The position numbers and the translations under genes were made by a program. From Octopus sinensis (lineage: Eukaryota), in NCBI RefSeq assembly GCF_006345805.1, contig NW_021823629.1, forward strand, positions 1-21,850: a DNA stretch of 21,850 bases, given 5' to 3'. Position 1 is the stretch's first letter. The number at the start of each line of letters is the position of its first letter. Below, in pieces: positions 2 through 21,850 of this stretch. Under the pieces are notes generated by a model. It did not search any database, was not told the DNA's origin, and saw only the letters and a program-made list of their open reading frames with translations.

Positions 2-424
2 AGAGTAAAAGGCAGACTGTATGATGCATGCGTACGTACAGCCATGCTACATGGTAGTGAAACATGGGCCGTGACTGCTGAGGATATGCGTAAGCTCACA
101 AGAAATGAAGCCAGTATTCTCCGATGGATGTGTAATGTCAGTGTTCATAATCGTCAGAGTGTAAGTACCTTGAGAGAAAAGTTGAACCTAAGAAGCGTCA
201 GTTGTGGTGTGCAAGAGCGACGGCTGCGCTGGTATGGTCATGTGACGAGAATGGCTGAAGATAGTTGTGTGCAAAAGTGCTACACCCTAGCAGTTGAGGG
301 AACCTGTGGAAGAGGTAGACCCAGGAAAACCTGGGACGAGGTGGTGAAGCACGACCTTCGAACTTTAGGTCTCACCAAGGAAATGACTAGAGACCGAGAC
401 CTATGGAAGTATGCTGTGCGTTAG
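2..424 (+). CDS. RTE reverse transcriptase C-terminal region (5'-partial)
   Basis: The frame is open from base 2 (RVKGRLYDACVRTAMLHGSETW...) to TAG 422-424. A second in-frame TAG at 440-442 (after KTRQD) may be the original stop. Confidence 0.85.
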   Translation, partial: RVKGRLYDACVRTAMLHGSETWAVTAEDMRKLTRNEASILRWMCNVSVHNRQSVSTLREKLNLRSVSCGVQERRLRWYGHVTRMAEDSCVQKCYTLAVEGTCGRGRPRKTWDEVVKHDLRTLGLTKEMTRDRDLWKYAVR

Positions 425-2526: not shown

Positions 2527-3616
2527 TACAACTCTCTCCCTTCTCTTTCCCCTCCTTAATTCTTTTGTTCCTCTTTTTCTCTCTCTTCTCTTCCCACGTG
2601 ACCGATAGGCCAGACAGCTAACCCTCTTTTTGCGTCTGACCACGGTCAGTGCAACATCGATATTCTTCCGTGTGTTGGTGGAAGCCCTGTATCTCTGCCT
2701 GTATCTCTGACGTTTTTTTTAGTGCATTCAACGATGCTCAGTCCAAACCCACGACCCGCCACATTCTTCCAGAAAAGAAAGGGGGAGGGGTGGTGGGGGA
2801 CCTTGGGGTTTCCCACCAACAGAGTTTTGTTTTGTTTTTTTTCTGGGTTATTTTACGTTTTCAATGTATGACATTGAAATTATACGTAAACGGCTCCTTT
2901 CCTTAGAAAAAGAAAGATTCGGCCACTATTTCTTGCATGCCCTACTACCACGTAACAGCTATATTGAGTCCTTTATCGTAAATAGCTGTTGTATGGTAAC
3001 AGGGCATGCTAGAAATAGCAACCAAGTCTTTGGAAATGAGATACATTAAATGCACTTGAAAAAAACCTATGGAAAGAATTTATTTCACAGTGAGGTTATG
3101 AACAGGTCTTTTACGAAATATTTACGGTATTTCTAAAGCCATCTTCACTTTAAAATATTTTTTAAATATGCCAAAACAATATTCGTAATGGTATTCAATC
3201 GAATATAATAAAAAAATAAAATTGTCTGTTTAAAGAAAGCTAAAATATAAATACAAAAAAGCAAATATAGAAACATTTCCTGTAAAAACAACTTTTTTTG
3301 TTGGCAAGTTAGTCATAATGTGTCTAATCGAAAGGCTAAAAATTCTTCCTTTTCAGGGTTAAGTTACTTTTGGTGTATTTTCCCAATATGCACTGTTTTG
3401 GGTATTTATACCCACCAAAACTCCTAATATCTCAAGAACCAATTGTCCAATTCACACGAAACTTGTTTTATTCCGTTTGTATTCACATTTCAGGAAAGTC
3501 TTAATTCTTAGTATTTTCCCCATTATGTGCCATTTTGGCTATGTAACATTTGAAGCAAGATTGAAGTTCATTTTTAATGTAATATATGTGTGTGTGTGTA
3601 TAGGTTTGCCTACTTA

Positions 3617-5683: not shown

Positions 5684-6430
5684 TTATGGATCAACTTCAT
5701 AACGAGTACACTTGTGTTTAATTGAGTGATGTTTTCGTGAGAATGATTTACCACAGATGTCACAACGATATGGTTCCTCACCTGTGTGAATACGTTTATG
5801 TGCAGTCAAGTTACTGCCAACAGAGAATGATTTACCACAGATATCACAGTAGTAGGGTTTCTCCCCTGTATGAATACGCTTGTGTTTAGTTAAGCTACTG
5901 TTCTGAGAGAATGATTTACCACAGATATCACAGGGATATGGTTTCTCCCCTGTATGAATATGCTTGTGTGCGGTTAAGCTACTGCTAACAGAGAATGATT
6001 TGCCACAGATATCACAGCGATATGGTTTCTCACCTGTATGAACACGTTTGTGTTTATTTAAGTTATTGCCAGCAGAGAATGATTTACCACAGATATCACA
6101 GCAATATGGTTCCTCACCTGTGTGAATACGTTTGTGTGCAGTGAAGTTACTGCTAACAGAGAATGATTTACCACAGATATCACAGTGATATGGTTTCTCT
6201 CCAGTATGAATACGTTTGTGTTTCGTTAAGCTACTGCCAACAGAGAATGATTTACCACAGATATCACAATGATATGGTTTCTCACCTGTATGAGTACGTT
6301 TGTGTTGAATTAGGTTATTCCTGTCAGACAATGATTTACCACAGATATCACAGCGATATGGCTCTTGACTTGTATGAATTTGTTGGTGTTTACTGGATTT
6401 ACGTTTTTCTAAAAATGACATTTTGTACAT
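5684..6430 (-). CDS. C2H2 zinc-finger protein, gene 1 (7 intact fingers + 1 degenerate C-terminal finger)
   Basis: 248 aa of tandem CxxC-x12-HxxxH units with TGEKPY/TGEEPY linkers. No KRAB, BTB or SCAN domain is visible. Confidence 0.92.
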
Positions 6431-6860
6431 GCCACAGTCATATGATGATTTTCCGTATTCTTCCGATATTTCTTCAAGAACAAATAAAATCTAACCTTCT
6501 CTCACCAAAATATATGGATATTTTTCTTCTTTTTGCTTTTATAGTTTATTCCAAACAAATATCACTTCTCTTATATTTCTTGTAAACGTGATCATTGCCA
6601 ATATTTAAAAATGTTGCAAATACTCTTTGGAAATCCATCAAAGTATATTTAAAAGAGAAAATTTTCTCTTGCACATTTCAGACACAGAAGTAAAGAAATG
6701 CTTTCTCTCTCAGAGGAAATATTTTACTGTAATTCAGCAATGTTTTATAGAAGCAGGATTATACGTTTGTAGAATATCTTTGCAGAGTCTTTCAAACATG
6801 ATACATATTGATGATTCTTTAAAAGCAAAAAATACTTTTTAGCCAATTTCATGTGATTTC

Positions 6861-9949: not shown

Positions 9950-11523
<1,574 letters not shown>

Positions 11524-13724
11524 GCCACAGTCATATGATGATGTTCCGTATTCCTCCGATATTTCTTCAAGAAAAATAAAATCGAACCTTCAAGTTGTAC
11601 AGATCAACAACTTTTTAATAATATTTCTCCTCTCACCAAAATATATGGATATTTTGCTTCTTTTTGCTTTAATAGTTAATTCCAAACAAATATCACTTCT
11701 CTTATATTTCTTCTGAACGTGATCATTGCCAATATTTAAAAATGTTGCAAATACTCTTTGGAAATCTATCAAAGTATATTTAAAAGAGAAAATTATCTCT
11801 TGCACATTTCAGACACAGAAGTGAAGAAATGCTTTCTCTCTCAGAGGAAATATTTTACTGTAATTCAGCAATGTTTTATAGAAGCAGGATTATACGTTTG
11901 TAGAATATCTTTGCAGAGTCTTTCAAACATGATACATATTCATGATTCTTTAAAAGCAAAAAATACTTTTTATCCAATTTCATGTGATTCTTCTGAAAGA
12001 ATAGAAAAAATAATATAAGACATCAAGTATGTTTAAAAGGCAGATATTCAAAAGTGCAAATTTACGACATTTCTGTTTCCATAAATTGTAGAAGTAATTC
12101 TTTATCTGAACTATTATATTAATCCCATCTCTCTATTTTCGAGAAGTTTATATCAGGGTGTAGACACATGTAGTATAATAACATCTGGACATTAAGTCTG
12201 TCATAGACACACACCAACATACATGTCAATAACACTAGATATCTGATGTTTTAATCTCAATGATGTGTTGTAAAAGAGATATCACACCTCCTCTGCCTCT
12301 TTCCGTACATTTATAAATATATAAATACACACATACAGGCAGCTTAATGTCAATATTCTGTGTTACATGAAACATGAATAAAAGTCAGCAAATAATCAGT
12401 ATGGATGACTAACAGCATCAAAATCTTTTGTGGGGAATTTTTCATGTAGGAGAAATTATTGGTTGAGGTGGAGAAGGAAATTGGTGACAATCCTTCTCAA
12501 TGGGGGCAAATGATGCGTAATCACGGAGGTGTGAGTTCGAGTCTCATAGCCTGCCGCCAACACTTTTCTGCAAAATAGGGGTAGCTTATCCTGTTCAGGC
12601 TATATTATTAGCAATATCCTGCCTTTGAGAATTTAAAATCATTTCTTAAACTTTCTAAGACATCTCAAAAGCTTCTAAAGCAAACTTCGTTTGTTTGTTT
12701 ACGTTCATCGTAATTTGAATATAAATATATATGTATTACGAAGAGAGAAAAGGATAACTTAGGTAATTAATTGAAAATAGCATAAAAACACAGAGTGCAA
12801 TTCATATATAATGCCTTAAATCCCAACAACGGACCATTGAATGTGTTTATGTGAAAAAAGATATCAAAAAACATTAGCACGTAAGAGTGAGAAAGAAACT
12901 CGGAAGGTATCAGGTGGTCGTGGGGTGCGCGATAAATAACAGCTAAATTGCTCTTCAATCGGTTTTTTCCCTTCTTTGTTGGTTTCATAACCGATTGAAT
13001 CCTTGCATGTACAGCAGAAATACGCAGAATGTATTTTTATACATTCCGCATGTCTTAGAAATTACATCGTAATTTTCCCGCGGAATTTACATGTGAGGAA
13101 GAAAGAGAAAAGTTATCTACACAAGGTATCCATCGGACGTTAACAAATAATATAGGAAATAAGGAAAGATGCAATGAAATATCTGAATGTAAAGGAGACA
13201 CAACGAAAGTATTGAAAGAACAGCCTCACCGAAGTTGAAAAAGTGGGTTTCCATCGCAAAAAAATTAGGGAAAGGTAGGTGCGGTCCATGCCCTTTACCT
13301 CCGCTATTTCGTCTTTGTTTAGTGAGATTCTTTCTTGTAACTTACTCAACACATCGAAACAAACAGACGTACGTAATATGATACATATACAATAGAAATA
13401 TACTTACATAGTAATATATATTCAGAGACAGTCAACGATGAAAATATGAGAATATGTTGAATGAGTGAAAAGTTAGAGTGGACAGTGACAGCTTCAAGAG
13501 AATTTTTACGACGAATATTAATATTTAACAGGTCAACATAATAAAAAAAAATGCTGCATCTGTTTCTTTAGACACTTAATTACCAATCACGTGTCTATTT
13601 AATTAGATTTTCTCGTCAATATCGGTTGTAAAGTGGAACTGATCAAGCAATACACATGCATACGGAGCAACAAAATTAGGAAGAATTAACTCTGAACAAG
13701 GGGAACTAAGTCTTATCTTTCTAC

Positions 13725-15105: not shown

Positions 15106-16302
15106 CTACCCTGAATGAATACGTTTGTGTGCAGTTAAGTTACTGCCATCAGAGTATGATTTACCACAAATATCACAGCGATATGGTTCCTCTCCTGTGT
15201 GAATACGTTTGTGTGCAGTCAAGTTACTGCTAACAGAAAATGATTTACCACAGATATCACAGTGATAAGGTTTCTCCCCTGTATGAATGCGCTTGTGTTT
15301 AATTAAGGTACTTCCATCAGAGAAAGATTTACCACAGATATCACAGGAATATGGCTTCTCTCCTGTATGAACCCGTTTGTGAGTAGTTAAGCTGCTGCTT
15401 TGAGAGAATGATTTACCACAGATATCACAGTCATATGGTTTCTCGCCTGTGTGAATACGTTTGTGGTTTGTTAAGTGACTATTTAGAGAGAATGATTTAC
15501 CACAGATATCACAGTGATATGGTTTGTCCCCTGTATGAATACATATGTGCTTCGTTAAGCTACTTCCATCAGAGAAAGATTTACCACAGATATCACAGCG
15601 ATATGGTTTCTCTCCAGTATGAATATATTTGTGTCTCGTTAAGCTACCGCCAACAGAGAATGATTTACCACAGATATCACAGTGATATGGTTTCTCCCCT
15701 CCATGAACCTGTCTGTGAGTAGTTAAATTACTGTCATTAGAGAATGATTTACCACAGATATCACAGCGATATGGTTTCTCGCCTGTATGAAGACGTTTGT
15801 GTTTAGTTAAGCTACTGGAAACAGAGAATGATTTACCACAGATATCACAGTGGTGTGGTTTCTCACCTGTATGAACACGTTTGTGTTGAGTTAAGCTACT
15901 GCTTTGAGAGAATGATTTACCACAGATATTACAGGTATATGGTTTGTCTCCTGTATGAATATGTTTGTGTTGAATTAAGGCACTGCCATCAGAGAATGAT
16001 TTATCACAAATATCACAGTGATATGGTTTGTCCCCTGTATGAATACGCTTGTGAATATCTAAGCTATGAGTACGAGAGAATGATTTACCACAGATATTAC
16101 AGGTATATGGTTTCTCTCCTGTATGAATACGTATGTGTTGTGTTAAGTGACTGTTACTTAAGAATGATTTACCACAGATACTACAGTGATATGGTGCTTC
16201 CTCTGTATGAATTTGTTTGTGTTGATTGAATTTACTTTCTTCTAAGAATGACTCTTTGCAGATATCACAGTCATATGATGATTTTCCTAATTCTTCCGAC
16301 AT
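15106..16302 (-). CDS. C2H2 zinc-finger protein, gene 3 (14 intact fingers; stop is GAG->TAG in a linker)
   Basis: 398 aa, [15 protein letters not shown]...; ends IHSG* where the linker consensus is TGEKP. Confidence 0.92.
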
Positions 16303-18890
16303 CTCTTCAAGAAAAATAAACCTGAACCTTCAAGTTGTACAGATCAAGAACTTTTCGAAAATATTTCTCCTCTCACCAAAATATATGGATATTTTGCTTC
16401 TTTTTGCTTTAATAGTTAATTCCAAACAAATATCACTTCTCTTATATTTCTTCTGAACGTGATCATTGCCAATATTTAAAAATGTTGCAAATACTCTTTG
16501 GAAATCTATCAAAGTATATTTAAAAGAGAAGATTATCTTTTGCACATTTCAGACACAGAAGTAAAGAAATGCTTTCTCTCTCTCAGAGGAAATATTTTAC
16601 TGTAATTCAGCAATGTTTTCTAAAAGCAGGATTATACGTTTGTAGAATATCTTTGCAGAGTCTTTCAAACATGATACATATTGATGATTCTTTAAAAGTA
16701 AAAAATACTTTTTAGCCAATTTCATGTGATTTTTCTGAAAGAATAGAAAAAATAATATAAGACATAAAGCATGTTTAAAAGGCAGATATTCAAAAGTGCA
16801 AATTTACGACATTTCTGTTTTCATAAATTGTAGAATTGATCCTTTATCTGAACTATTATATTCATCCCATCTCTCTATTTTCAAGAGGTTTATATCACAG
16901 ACACATCCATCGTAATAACACCTCCTGGACTTTGCGTCTGTCCTAGACACACACACACACCAATATACATGTCAATGACAGTAGATATCTGATGTCTTCC
17001 CCTCAGTGTTCTATTGTATCAACACAGGTTTGTTTTATAACATAGACATCACTCCTCCTCTGCCTCTTTCTGTATATGCATAAATATACAAATATATATA
17101 TGTGGTTAGCTTAATGTTAACCTTTTGTTGAGCATAAAAGATGCATAAAAGTCAGTAAATAATATTGATGTCTGACTTGCAGCATCAAAATCTTTTGTGG
17201 GGAATTTTTGATGTTAAGAAAAATTGTTGGTTGATGAAATTGGTGACAATCCTTCTCCATGGGGCAAATGGAAGAGGCTTCAATGAAGTCTATCCTTCTT
17301 TTACGGAAAAACTATAATTTCTTTTCATTGTTATGCACATAGTTTTAAAACTTAGCCATTCTTGTTTTTTTCTTTTAATTATAAATTCTTACACATTATA
17401 ATTAATGTTTCTCTTCCTTGTTGCTTCAAAACGAAATATTGTTTATCTGGATGAGTGAAAAATACATTCATATTAAATATATACGCATTACGAAGAAAGA
17501 AAAGGATAACTTGCATAATTAATTGAAAATAACATTTAAAAAGGGTGCAATTCTGCTTTAAACATTATATAGTTCCTTAAATTTCTTTTCCCATTTTTCT
17601 GTGGAATTTTCGAAAAATTCTCCAAATTTGTGACCTACATTATGAAAAAATTGTTTCCCATTTTTTAAAAAATTGCCACTGTAGAACTTTGATTAAATCT
17701 CAACAATGTGTTTATGTGGAGAAGGATATCTTTTCTACTCTAGGCACAAGGCCAGAAATTTTGGGAGAGGGGGCCCAAGTGGATTAGATAGACCCCAGTA
17801 CGCAACTGGTACTAAATTTATCGACCTCGAAAGGATGAAAGGCAAAGTCGACCTCGACGGAATTTGAACTCACGTGCTAACGATTCTACCAGCTCGCCGG
17901 TTTTATATGGAGAAAAATACTGAAAAACGTCAGCACATCGGAGTGACAAAGAAACTAGGGAGGTATCAGGTGGTCGTGAGATGTGCGAAAAATAACAGCT
18001 AAATAGCTCTTAAAGCACACAGCTTTTGCTTGTTTGTTGAATTCTCGTGTGTAGAATATGTATTTGCAAAAATTTTCTGAAAATTCCGGAAAAAACAAAA
18101 CAAACCCCAGATATTAATTGTAAGTTGTAATGATGCAGAAGAAACGCCAGAAATAAAGACTTCCTATGTCTCAAATAAAAGCCATTTCCTCTCGATAAGA
18201 TATTTGCTTTTCGTTTCAGTATTTCAAGTGCACACTCGTATGTTTATACATTCCCCATTTCTTACTAATTCCATCGTAATTTTCCCGCTTTTAACGAAAT
18301 CGTCGAATTTACACGTTAGAAAGAAAGATAAATGTTATCTAAACAAGGGATTGATCCGACGTTTTTACAAATAATTTAGAAAATAACCAAAAGTGCAATG
18401 AAATGTCTAAAAGAAAACGACAACACAATGAAAGTATTAAAATTACAGCCTTTCGTATAATTTCGTCTTCGAGATTTTTTTTCCTTTTTACTTTCTCAAC
18501 ACATCGAAACAAATAAATGTACATAATACGACACATATATAATAGAAATGTTTAAATAAATACTTACATAGTAATAGATATGGAGAGAAAGAGTGAAGGA
18601 GGAAGATGTGAGAACTGGAGTCAGAGTGGACAACGACAGCTTCAAGAGAATTTCTAGATTTCTACAACAAACGTTAATTAATATTTTTCAGGTCCACATA
18701 ATCTTAAATGCTGTATCTGTTTGTTTAGACAGTTAATTACCAATCATTTGTATATATTTGATTGGATTTTCTCTTAAATATCAGTCGTAAAGTGGAACTG
18801 ATCAAACAATCAAGGTGCGTGAGAAACAGGAGCAAGAAATACACTTAATGAGGAAGAGTTTTGATAATGAACAACGAGAACTAACTCCAA
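16200..18890. repeat. Older, more diverged third copy of the gene 5' region
   Basis: Very similar to copies A and B up to ~16900, then clearly more diverged but colinear to ~18890. Confidence 0.85.
17729..17900 (-). mobile_element. tRNA-derived SINE with target-site duplication, in the intron of gene 3
   Basis: Minus strand GGCGAGCTGGTAGAATCGTTAGCAC (A box) and GAGTTCAAATTCC (B box). Flanked by TTTATGTGGAGAA (17711-17723) and TTTATATGGAGAA (17902-17914). The site is empty in units 1 and 2. Confidence 0.88.
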
Positions 18891-19199: not shown

Positions 19200-20700
19200 A
19201 ATGATAATATGAAAGCGACGCTCTCGGCCCCATCCGCCAGCATCACTTACCTGTCCTTTATCACCCATTTCCAATTACAATTCCTAGTTTTTCTATCACA
19301 CTCTTCGTTTTCCTTTCATACATCTCTATCATTTCACCCTGCATCGGCACTGTCATCCATTTTATACCCTCTTCCTCACACCTCCTCGCCAATGTCTCCA
19401 TAAATTCATATTTCACAACCGCGTAACTACCATCTTCATGTTCGCGCCATAAGTCTTTATGTACCATCCTTTTCGAGTTCTGGGTGTCCCTCCTCCTCGC
19501 AACATACAAAAAATAGGTCCTGGGACTTTGTTCGTTCTGTGTGTCTGCATTTGTTTTTGTTTTTCTTGTAGGCGGGGAGTGGGTGGAATCGCTGTTTGCA
19601 GGGGAGGGATGGGATTCAGAGGGTACGTGTGGTGTTGGGGTTGGTTAGGGTTTCGTACTGTTTTCTTTTTTCTTTCTTTTCCTTTTTTTATCCCTTCTTC
19701 CCACTCTTGCTGGATCTCCTCCCCTTCAGTTGCTTCCCTTTCTGTTTGGTTCTCCTTTTCTTTAGTGTCTTCCTTCTTTTGGGGTTCCGTAACGATTTCC
19801 TTTTCCTTTGGAGGGAGAGGGCAGTAGGCTCTTATGTGACCCCTCAGGCCACACTTATAGCACCTGGGCGCCCTGCCCTCCACCCACACTCTCATAATAA
19901 TGTTCCCCGTTCCTACAGTATCTGTCAGCCCTTCCACTGCTTCCGCCTCCGTCTGCATATTCATGTCCAAGGTAGCACCTCTCACGCCTTCGCACTTCAT
20001 CGTGGCGTGGAGGATGTCCACCTTTTCCTCGTTTCCCTTAATCACCGCTGCCGTTATGTATTCACCCGCTAGGTGTGGAGGTATTCCCTCCACCCTAATT
20101 CTTGTGGTCCTTCTATTTAGATACGAGGGCAGTAAGTATATTTTCTCGGTCTTCACCACCTTGGCTGCTATTTTTTTGGCGACGTTCTCACTTCTATACT
20201 GCACCGTTACCGTTCCACACTCCATTCCTCCAGTCAGGTAAACAATTTCCTCTCCAGTCTGTTTCAATGCCTCTTCAATAACTTCCACATTGACTACTTC
20301 CATCCTTCTTCCCCCATTCACGCACACTCCATATTTTATGGTTCCAAGATTGAACCACTCGCCCCGCTTTGCTGGAGGTGACAGCTCGACTTCGTCGTTT
20401 TCCTCCTCCTTCATAAAATTCTGGAAGCCTGGTAGTTTAGCCAGGTCCACCTCTTTTTCTATCGACTTCCTCATTATTCCTGCGTAGGTACTTTCCAGCT
20501 TCCTGTCCATTTTTGCCACTGCTTCTTCCAACTCCTCCTCAGATGTTGACAATTCCGGCAAACTTTCAAATAAATTCCTCCCGGCCATCTCACCAGTTAG
20601 GGAGAGGCGGCTCATAATCTCCTCAGACCGAAAACGGCCGCCCAAACAGAAACAGTGCAACGCGCAGAACCAGTGCGACGCGAAACCGCATCAACCGAAG
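19200..20700 (-). mobile_element. Tx1/L1-like non-LTR retrotransposon, 5' portion (5'UTR, ORF1, first codons of probable ORF2)
   Basis: GC-richer island containing a gag-like ORF1. Boundaries are approximate. Confidence 0.75.
19261..20615 (-). pseudogene. Retrotransposon ORF1 (gag-like, CCHC zinc knuckle), probably with one frameshift
   Basis: First ATG at 20615 (MSRLSL). Contains RIRVEGIPPHL and VWVEGRAPR-CYKCGLRGHIRAYC, then an acidic/basic tail. An overlapping frame is open from ~19644 to TGA 19263-19261 (...SPRTYFLYVARRR...IVIGNG*) and likely encodes the real C-terminus. Confidence 0.8.
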
Positions 20701-20922
20701 TTCAAAACTCCACAACACTTTTTGTTCTTTTTCACCGACGTCAAACGTTAGGGAACTAACTCCGGTCTTTAAAGAATTGCGGCTCTACTTTATAGATTTG
20801 CTATTTTGTGAAAGATGTTTCTTTGATAATTCTGTCTCATAAATTATTATTATTGTCATTATTACCAATCCTGCCGAATCTTTTCTGTTTGGCTGCAAAT
20901 ATGGAAGTTTTTAATTATTCAC

Positions 20923-21003
20923 ATATATATATATATATATTATAATTATATATATATACATATATATATATTTATATATCTATATTATATTTATATATAT
21001 ATA
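20923..21003. repeat. Imperfect (TA)n microsatellite
   Basis: Read directly from the sequence. Confidence 0.9.
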
Positions 21004-21244
21004 CTCTTTTATTCTTTTACTTGTTTCAGTCATTTGACTGCGGCCATGCTAGAGCACCGCCTTTAGTCGAGCAAATCGACTCCGGGACTTATTAATTGTA
21101 AGCCCAGTACTTACTCTATCGGTCACTTTTGCCGAACCCCTAAGTGCCGGGGACGTAAACACACCAGCATGCAATGCTACCGGGACAAACACACATACAT
21201 ACATACATATATGAGTGTGTATGCACACATATTTATATTTATAT

Positions 21245-21546
21245 GTAAATTTTTTTCATACTTGCATTAAATTCTCTGAAGAGGCCGTGAGATATTCTTG
21301 TTAATGTCTCATTTATACCTGCTTTATATGGCTAATAGGTTAAATGGGACATACCTGTCTTCACGGCCGAAACAGCTGTCAGCTACAATGTAAATGTAAA
21401 TGTATTTCTATTTCTATGTCTTGTTATATTTGTACTATATTAATGTATAATATCATTGCTATTGTGTAATGGTTTAATAAAGTATTGATTGGGTATTATC
21501 TGATGGTTGATGATTGATTTAGATATATTTCTCCGTTTTCTCATTT

Positions 21547-21550
<4 letters not shown>
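21245..21550 (+). mobile_element. Probable Penelope-like element terminal-repeat fragment inserted in a (TA)n tract
   Basis: AT-rich non-repetitive insert between two TA-rich tracts, carrying a minimal hammerhead motif. The family assignment is inferred from the ribozyme type only. Confidence 0.55.
21263..21392 (+). ncRNA. Type I hammerhead ribozyme motif
   Basis: CTGAAGA 21276-21282; stem II GGCCGTGA 21283-21290 / TCACGGCC 21361-21368; GAAA 21369-21372; stem III AC-AGCT-GT; cleavage triplet GTC 21378-21380. Confidence 0.85.
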
Positions 21551-21583
<33 letters not shown>

Positions 21584-21850
21584 TCATATATACGACAGGC
21601 TTCCTTCAGTTTCCAACTACCAAATCCACTCACAAGGCTTTGGTTGGCCCGGGGCTATAGAAGAAGACGCTTGCCCAAGATTCCACGCAGTGGGACTGAA
21701 CCCAGAACCATGTGGTTGGTAAGCAAGCTACTTACCGCACAACCACTCCTGTGCCTTTGCTAGAGAAAGATGAGCTGGTGAAAGTTGTATGTATCATGGC
21801 TGTCTCTGGTCATCTCATTTCACCAACTGGCTTTTGCTTTACGAAATTCT

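Follow-up and report, generated by a model that had tools for sequence, protein, structure and literature searches.

A predicted type I hammerhead with an extended stem II in the 3′ end of a probable Hydra-clade Penelope-like element of Octopus sinensis

The role of hammerheads in Penelope-like elements (PLEs) is an open question. It is raised again by a 21,850-nucleotide stretch of the Octopus sinensis genome (hereafter the window), which carries near its end a hammerhead motif with a very long stem II: to what does the motif belong, and would it cleave? Hammerheads in PLE pseudo-LTRs, with a palindromic helix III and action as dimers, have already been published (PMC4209133), as have those of Hydra PLEs, one of them from octopus (Hydra-1_Obim, PMC8557442); here and below, statements on the literature refer to the available parts of the papers cited. 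As judged from sequence, what appears to be new is the length of stem II, the length of the tail, the size of the element, the copy number, and the lineages with a CCGA core. Intact frames and young copies are available in the family, as are three lengths of stem II and a natural U4/C4 switch, which lets the question be tested directly.

Results

Parts of the hammerhead motif

The motif spans positions 21263–21392 (+), and its classification as a predicted type I hammerhead ribozyme relies on sequence, fold, and the conservation of pairs among copies. The core segment CUGAAGA (C3 to A9, 21276–21282, +), in which sister lineages replace U4 with C, leads into an extended stem II of 86 nt (21283–21368, +). 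From its base, this arm consists of 8 bp (GGCCGUGA, 21283–21290, with UCACGGCC, 21361–21368), a bulge, 4 bp (GAUA, 21291–21294, with UGUC, 21356–21359, a helix overlooked in the sequence-only reading of this locus), a 9 × 3 internal loop, 12 bp (AUGUCUCAUUUA, 21304–21315, with UAAAUGGGACAU, 21341–21352), an upper 4 bp (ACCU, 21317–21320, with AGGU, 21337–21340), and an apical loop. The segment 21369–21380 (+) holds the core GAAA (21369–21372), the palindromic stem III ACAGCUGU (21372–21379), and C17 at 21380, after which the cut is predicted. The 5′ arm of stem I (21263–21275, +) and its 3′ arm (21381–21392, +; placed by the fold and by comparison of flank pairs) form two proximal pairs (CU/AG), an internal loop, and six distal pairs (UGCAUU, 21263–21268, with AAUGUA, 21387–21392). 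The core nucleotides are present in order, together with the G10.1–C11.1 and A15.1–U16.1 pairs. On rereading the sequence, the complete core, stems I–III, and the palindrome were all found where the sequence-only reading had placed them, and its hammerhead observation holds.

The bare core pattern with a gap of 20–50 nt occurs twice in the window against 2.3 expected, which is the chance level, so the case for a hammerhead rests on the helices and the copies. The core-plus-stem pattern of the window type has 145 exact matches in the genome and none for the reversed control. The fold of 21255–21400 has an energy of −41.7 kcal/mol (z −3.89), which none of 200 shuffles equaled, and the stem II segment alone has a z of −6.9 (60 shuffles). 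The model scan that had been proposed as a check failed to recover the motif: Rfam gave six matches at E ≤ 1, none of them a hammerhead or any other ribozyme, probably because of the long stem II.

Folding of the monomer and the dimer

The minimum free energy (MFE) structure of the monomer is without the active junction. The pair probabilities are 0.059 for proximal stem I and 0.002 for stem III, and the active monomer fold lies ~10 kcal/mol above the MFE, a score that omits a few apical pairs and is based on nearest-neighbor energies, which disregard tertiary contacts. The monomer is thus predicted to be mostly inactive, with a noncatalytic fold favored. As an 8-bp intermolecular helix, the palindrome reaches −11.1 kcal/mol versus +2.4 kcal/mol for the monomer hairpin, and two copies co-fold at −91.5 versus 2 × −39.5 kcal/mol. 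Cleavage as a dimer would fit these folding energies.

Borders and insertion target of the window copy

Borders against other copies, and the linkage to an RT-EN frame in longer copies, delimit a 343-bp, 5′-truncated 3′ end (pseudo-LTR region) of a Hydra-clade PLE at 21209–21551 (+). It ends in a short 3′ terminus that is common to the family (21539–21551, +; defined from other copies), 171 nt past the predicted cut. The (TA)n run that follows (21552–21592, no strand assigned) is the likely insertion target, as suggested by its sequence, by other copies, and by the preference of Hydra-clade elements for (TA)n targets (PMC8557442). A search with a 321-nt query gave 1,956 candidates in the 2.72-Gb genome, of which 40 were scored, and identity was 93–100% in the resulting 42 matches. 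In the 30 loci examined, the copies have their common 3′ end at 21551, with (TA)n directly after it, and most of them reach farther upstream than the window copy, whose 5′ end is at 21209. Several copies are head-to-head inverted pairs in which one member runs ~170 nt beyond the common 3′ end; this optional tail of ~170 nt is absent from the window copy. The first (TA)n run begins 150–179 nt past the predicted cut in 88 of 135 occurrences, and a second group (29/135) lies at 300–349 nt, the occurrences including overlapping loci.

Three observations on the tail and the termini were made besides. In four runs, contig depth over the tail at L031:3488–3658 exceeds that over the hammerhead several-fold. 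In most sister-subfamily copies, the tail is 81–91% identical versus ~73% for the region upstream. An apparent 8-nt echo of stem II (21307–21314) at the termini is not evident in the other families among the matches listed.

The window copy is 97–98% identical to many dispersed copies, and two proximal stem I pairs are the commonest state in its subfamily (36 of 49 distinct flank pairs). The suggestion that the weak stem I marks a decayed copy is therefore not borne out, and two pairs are rather a trait of the subfamily. Positions 19740–21850 are 100% identical to G000:C28:4534845–4538165 and 98.7% identical to 4714592–4717912 of the same contig, 180 kb apart. This near-identity points to duplicates, not independent insertions; contig C100, to which the window belongs, is likely a duplicate of the C28 region, itself duplicated. 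No coding potential was detected in the 1.6 kb upstream of the hammerhead. By itself, the window copy is an ordinary truncated insertion, a solitary fragment without an ORF that is likely inert.

The frame at 19413–20690 (−) and the RT fragment at 2–424 were considered as parts of the element and rejected because the 5′ end of the element is at 21209. The former runs for 425 codons, includes a weak CCHC zinc knuckle (E 0.023), and is likely the ORF1/gag of an unrelated retroelement. The open frame at 2–424 (+), which had no Pfam match, resembles the C-terminal region of an RTE-type LINE reverse transcriptase. SINE-like dispersed repeats flank the element at ~21005–21190 and 21593–21750, with matches of ~70–90% in many loci.

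The parent element and its protein

The linkage to an RT and GIY-YIG frame that the sequence-only reading had suggested looking for was found. In three loci (L107, L106, and L121; 95.6, 94.5, and 92.9% identical to the window stretch), a frame for a telomerase-like RT with a C-terminal GIY-YIG domain (RT-EN) lies upstream on the same strand and stops 2,416–2,475 nt before the core. A GIY-YIG frame beside L037 was rejected as a partner, as it belongs to another family and lies on the opposite strand. No intact frame was found in the subfamily of the window among the 20 + 20 long loci examined. A search with the N-terminal part of the protein recovered sister subfamilies, one of which shares 73% identity with the window in the hammerhead region and 73% with L107 in protein, and contains unbroken 960-codon frames (L168 and L169). 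The L169 locus forms a partial tandem: its hammerheads, at 1671 and 7273, belong to a 2.16-kb direct repeat of 98% identity. The element unit is ~5.6–6 kb, the hammerhead-bearing direct repeats being 5.6 kb apart, and the stop-to-core distance is 2.1–2.5 kb.

Neither the RT nor the EN was recognized by Pfam, and sequence profile searches of the PDB gave 0 and 1 weak matches (best E 0.018). The model of the ~947-aa protein has a pLDDT of 79.7, with two Asn-rich inserts modeled at low confidence, and its top three Foldseek matches are telomerase RTs (E 2.6e-9 to 6.9e-8). In the representative library, 308 relatives of the protein were found at E ≤ 1e-30. The protein carries the Hydra motifs RWR (RWK in L157 and L161) and DKT. 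By eye, it has a CxCx5C linker as well as CxxC and CxH around the conserved E and N, lacks CCHH within the GIY-YIG core, and is collinear with the published Hydra proteins, while being distinct from Hydra-1_Obim.

The family shows the traits of a PLE: a single ORF with a telomerase-like RT and GIY-YIG (the intact frame coming from the sister subfamily, and the EN being assigned by motif rather than by profile), pseudo-LTR partial tandems with inverted 5′-truncated copies and an optional tail, and a sense-strand hammerhead in the pseudo-LTR. Insertion at (TA)n agrees with the Hydra clade; the unit of 5.6 kb departs from the short size (<3 kb) of Hydra elements, which is a descriptive trait in the available part of PMC8557442 and no strict criterion. 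Of the earlier alternatives “Penelope-like or retrozyme,” the former stands, and sequence comparison supports narrowing it to the Hydra clade; the latter does not, the copies being dispersed 3′ ends of a ~5.6–6-kb RT-EN element.

Conservation and covariation

Forty-seven loci were picked by their upstream or ORF sequence, and a covariance model gave 54 matches, 48 of them distinct. Ten invariant-core positions are 96–100% conserved in the 48 copies, while most flank columns are variable. Across subfamilies, G5, A6, G8, A9, G12, A13, A14, the A15.1–U16.1 pair, and the palindrome are conserved at 96–100%. Position 4 is occupied by U in 37 copies, by C in 10, and by A in one, and position 17 by C in 35, by A in 12, and by U in one.

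Pairing is kept in 90.8% of 1,616 cells, versus 25–42% when the pairs are slid. Two-sided changes number 35 versus 12.5 in shuffles (0/500), and 24 representatives give a similar picture; these figures come from a structure-fitted alignment, and relatedness among sequences can beat the shuffle control. Two measures that count pair types were within the shuffle range (156/500 and 92/500). On these comparisons, covariation among the copies is modest. RNAalifold on an unfitted alignment of the 24 representatives gave 18 pairs, all in stem II, four of them with two-sided changes. The covariation sought in stems I and II was seen in one of them: stem II has compensatory changes, whereas stem I (2–4 bp) has no two-sided change, and stem III is near-invariant. 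The 86-nt stem II therefore appears to be maintained by compensatory changes. The conservation of its apical loop nearly equals that of the core, and some of the conservation may thus serve a noncatalytic role.

Variants across the genome

A looser pattern was counted by the gap between the core halves, giving 251 matches at 6–39 nt, 9,354 at 40–75 nt, and 1,577 at 76–110 nt (controls: 6, 9, and 7, respectively); a hammerhead whose stem II is preceded by an extra base, or whose stem III is a different one, escapes this pattern, and the counts include duplicates and both members of inverted pairs. A gap of at least 40 nt is found in 10,931 of the 11,182 genome-wide matches to this one motif pattern, which suggests that descriptors with short stems undercount the ribozymes of this genome by a large factor. 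The description of stem II as atypical holds against the literature but not against the matches of this motif class, where a long stem II is the norm. In the present family, stem II is 82–106 nt.

The CCGA core has 456 exact matches in the genome and none in the control. Median nearest-neighbor identity is 0.976–0.980 for CCGA (20 sequences) versus 0.990 for CUGA (29), so the divergence of CCGA copies is only slightly higher. In a tree, the six CCGA rows lie on one side of a 100/100 branch; the tree left out 5 of 24 loci that have no downstream match (L153, L155, L156, L157, and L170), and L155 has a CCGA core with an ORF close to the subfamily of the window. CUGA versions of the 100-nt stem II type also occur. 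The data do not establish that CCGA arose once, and CpG decay from CCGA to CTGA could blur its history. In viroid-like RNAs, CCGA is reported to be tolerated but slower (PMC9608096, PMC3088659, and bioRxiv 10.64898/2026.09.16.752053, in the parts available).

In the 40–75-nt class, 30 loci were inspected among the matches listed: a Hydra-type endonuclease match lies within 1.5 kb of at least 13, with none for the other 17, and two termini are found ~155 nt apart. Across 16 sequences of this class, 10 pairs are predicted in stem II and 5 of them show two-sided changes; the consensus energy is weak. Two features recur in independent families: a stem I in two parts and, 10–12 bp up stem II, an internal loop.

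Other hammerhead families were encountered. Very abundant ones with a stem II of 53–55 nt and a proximal stem I of 3–6 bp (L113:5160, L005:1206, L119:6766, and L193–L221) are in part tied to other Hydra-type frames. A short-stem family (L225, L229, L231, and L232) has 15 nt between the core halves and mixed CUGA and CCGA cores; a Hydra-type endonuclease match was found in at least 1 of 10 loci of the short class. Two hammerheads of another family, L102:2017 and L102:2526 (+), share the same orientation at a distance of 509 nt, have a 79-nt stem II region and a palindromic stem III, and are possibly a cis dimer or a retrozyme-like unit.

Discussion

Comparison with known systems

The element resembles Hydra PLEs (PMC8557442) in its C-terminal GIY-YIG, its RWK-like, DKT, CxCx5C, CxxC, and CxH motifs, its (TA)n targets, and a sense-strand hammerhead near the 3′ end; the acag...ctgt stem III occurs in 4 of the 26 Hydra rows of the supplement. 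Unlike the published elements, which are mostly <3 kb, its unit is ~5.6 kb. In the 26 Hydra rows, stem II has 3–7 bp and loops of 3–10 nt, and two non-Hydra PLE-X rows have loops of ~28–35 nt. The 2,507-bp element Hydra-1_Obim carries a short hammerhead of a different kind, in contrast to the stem II of 82–106 nt found here. The minimal hammerheads of PMC4209133 are likewise type I, with a short helix I, G10.1–C11.1, a palindromic helix III, and a mostly solitary occurrence, and they have low activity as dimers. However, the helix II called “large” there has 6–8 bp, usually with an extra base between 9 and 10.1, whereas ~28 bp and no extra base are present here.

Poseidon PAc of Anolis (PMC11167929) shares a pLTR hammerhead, a tail with two termini, and AT-rich targets. 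It belongs to another clade, and its hammerhead overlaps the ORF start, whereas the one found here lies ~510 nt ahead of the next start codon, within a long untranslated region. Its tail, which marks two internal RT start sites, is 30–40 nt, as compared with ~170 nt here. Literature on long or extended stem II hammerheads and on cephalopod PLE ribozymes gave nothing like an 86-nt stem II, including the available parts of PMC13725137, PMC7229834, and bioRxiv 10.64898/2026.07.22.740005; the Terminon literature, the supplementary figures of PMC4209133, or Repbase/Dfam may already hold the family.

Proposed mechanism and alternatives

In all likelihood, the locus is the 5′-truncated 3′ end of a Hydra-clade PLE whose 3′ UTR carries a hammerhead of type I, its 86-nt stem II being conserved; alone, this hammerhead is predicted to cut weakly after 21380, and it would likely need a second copy or the protein of the element. 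Inserted copies contain both sides of the cut site, which requires a template that was uncut or rejoined, and cleavage seems unneeded before reverse transcription. Together with the predicted inactivity of the monomer, this suggests that cleavage is weak or gated by dimerization or protein. From the models and from analogy with other PLEs, we favor such gated cleavage, acting in the processing of element RNA. A precedent is the anole PLE (PMC11167929, available part), whose hammerhead requires protein for cleavage and whose insertion in vitro proceeds without a functional hammerhead.

Here, we propose how this may proceed. A partial-tandem locus would be transcribed through two hammerheads ~5.6 kb apart; two hammerheads per transcript are a feature of the partial tandem, not of inverted pairs or of the solitary window copy. 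Either an 8-bp helix would then form between the palindromic stem III segments or the fold would be stabilized by the RT-EN protein, and cleavage would trim the element RNA or bring it to unit size. RT-EN may nick (TA)n, with reverse transcription starting at either internal site, ~170 or ~340 nt past the cut. The long stem II probably provides an internal-loop contact to stem I, a protein-binding surface, or both.

The spanning of the cut site by inserted copies would also be expected if the motif were retained as a structural or protein-binding element that no longer cleaves usefully in vivo. Catalytic mutants of the anole PLE still inserted in vitro (PMC11167929, available part), and the two proximal stem I pairs and the 456 exact CCGA matches point the same way. 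We nevertheless consider loss of useful cleavage unlikely, since the core residues listed above, A15.1–U16.1, and the palindrome are 96–100% conserved across subfamilies. Only U4C recurs among the core changes, and a viroid hammerhead found in nature reportedly tolerates it, though it lowers activity in vitro (PMC3088659, available part).

A circular template would also explain the spanning copies (model in the available part of PMC4209133), and an efficient monomer acting through tertiary contacts of the extended stems I and II, with the cut RNA rejoined as a circular template for insertion, could exploit the two-part stem I and the stem II internal loop that recur in independent families. 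Such a monomer would have to overcome the ~10 kcal/mol separating its active fold from the MFE and a stem III probability of 0.002, and it would not need the conserved palindrome; this explanation is very unlikely. Most improbable of all is a nonautonomous retrozyme or satellite unit independent of the PLE. Most copies are indeed short and without an ORF, and non-LTR retrozymes (PMC7229834) share the type I fold, a weak palindromic helix III, and animal hosts; but they are noncoding tandem units of 150–450 bp, whereas the hammerhead here stands at the end of a coding element. Short tandem arrays were absent from every locus examined, and the variable 5′ ends run continuously into the RT-EN frame, so that the non-LTR retrozyme assignment is contradicted by the ORF linkage and was rejected.

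Beyond the favored weak, gated cleavage, a broader scheme may be put forward tentatively, and we regard it as doubtful. The family may be part of a Hydra-clade PLE radiation with >10,000 copies missed by Rfam, in which the long arm (10–12 bp, an asymmetric internal loop, and a distal hairpin) docks the RT-endonuclease, switching cleavage on and positioning the two RT start sites. If so, the CUGA and CCGA cores and the 53-, 86-, and 100-nt variants would constitute a natural tuning series.

Other features of the window

At 2913–3031, a hairpin has 50-nt arms that are 78% complementary, with a weak match to a miRNA model below the gathering score. A repeated, GC-richer sequence occupies ~560–1750, and its peptide segments recur in several frames. 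Three tandem C2H2 zinc-finger frames with 84-bp repeats lie at 5684–6490, 10453–11589, and 15106–16329 (−) and belong to a duplicated gene cluster.
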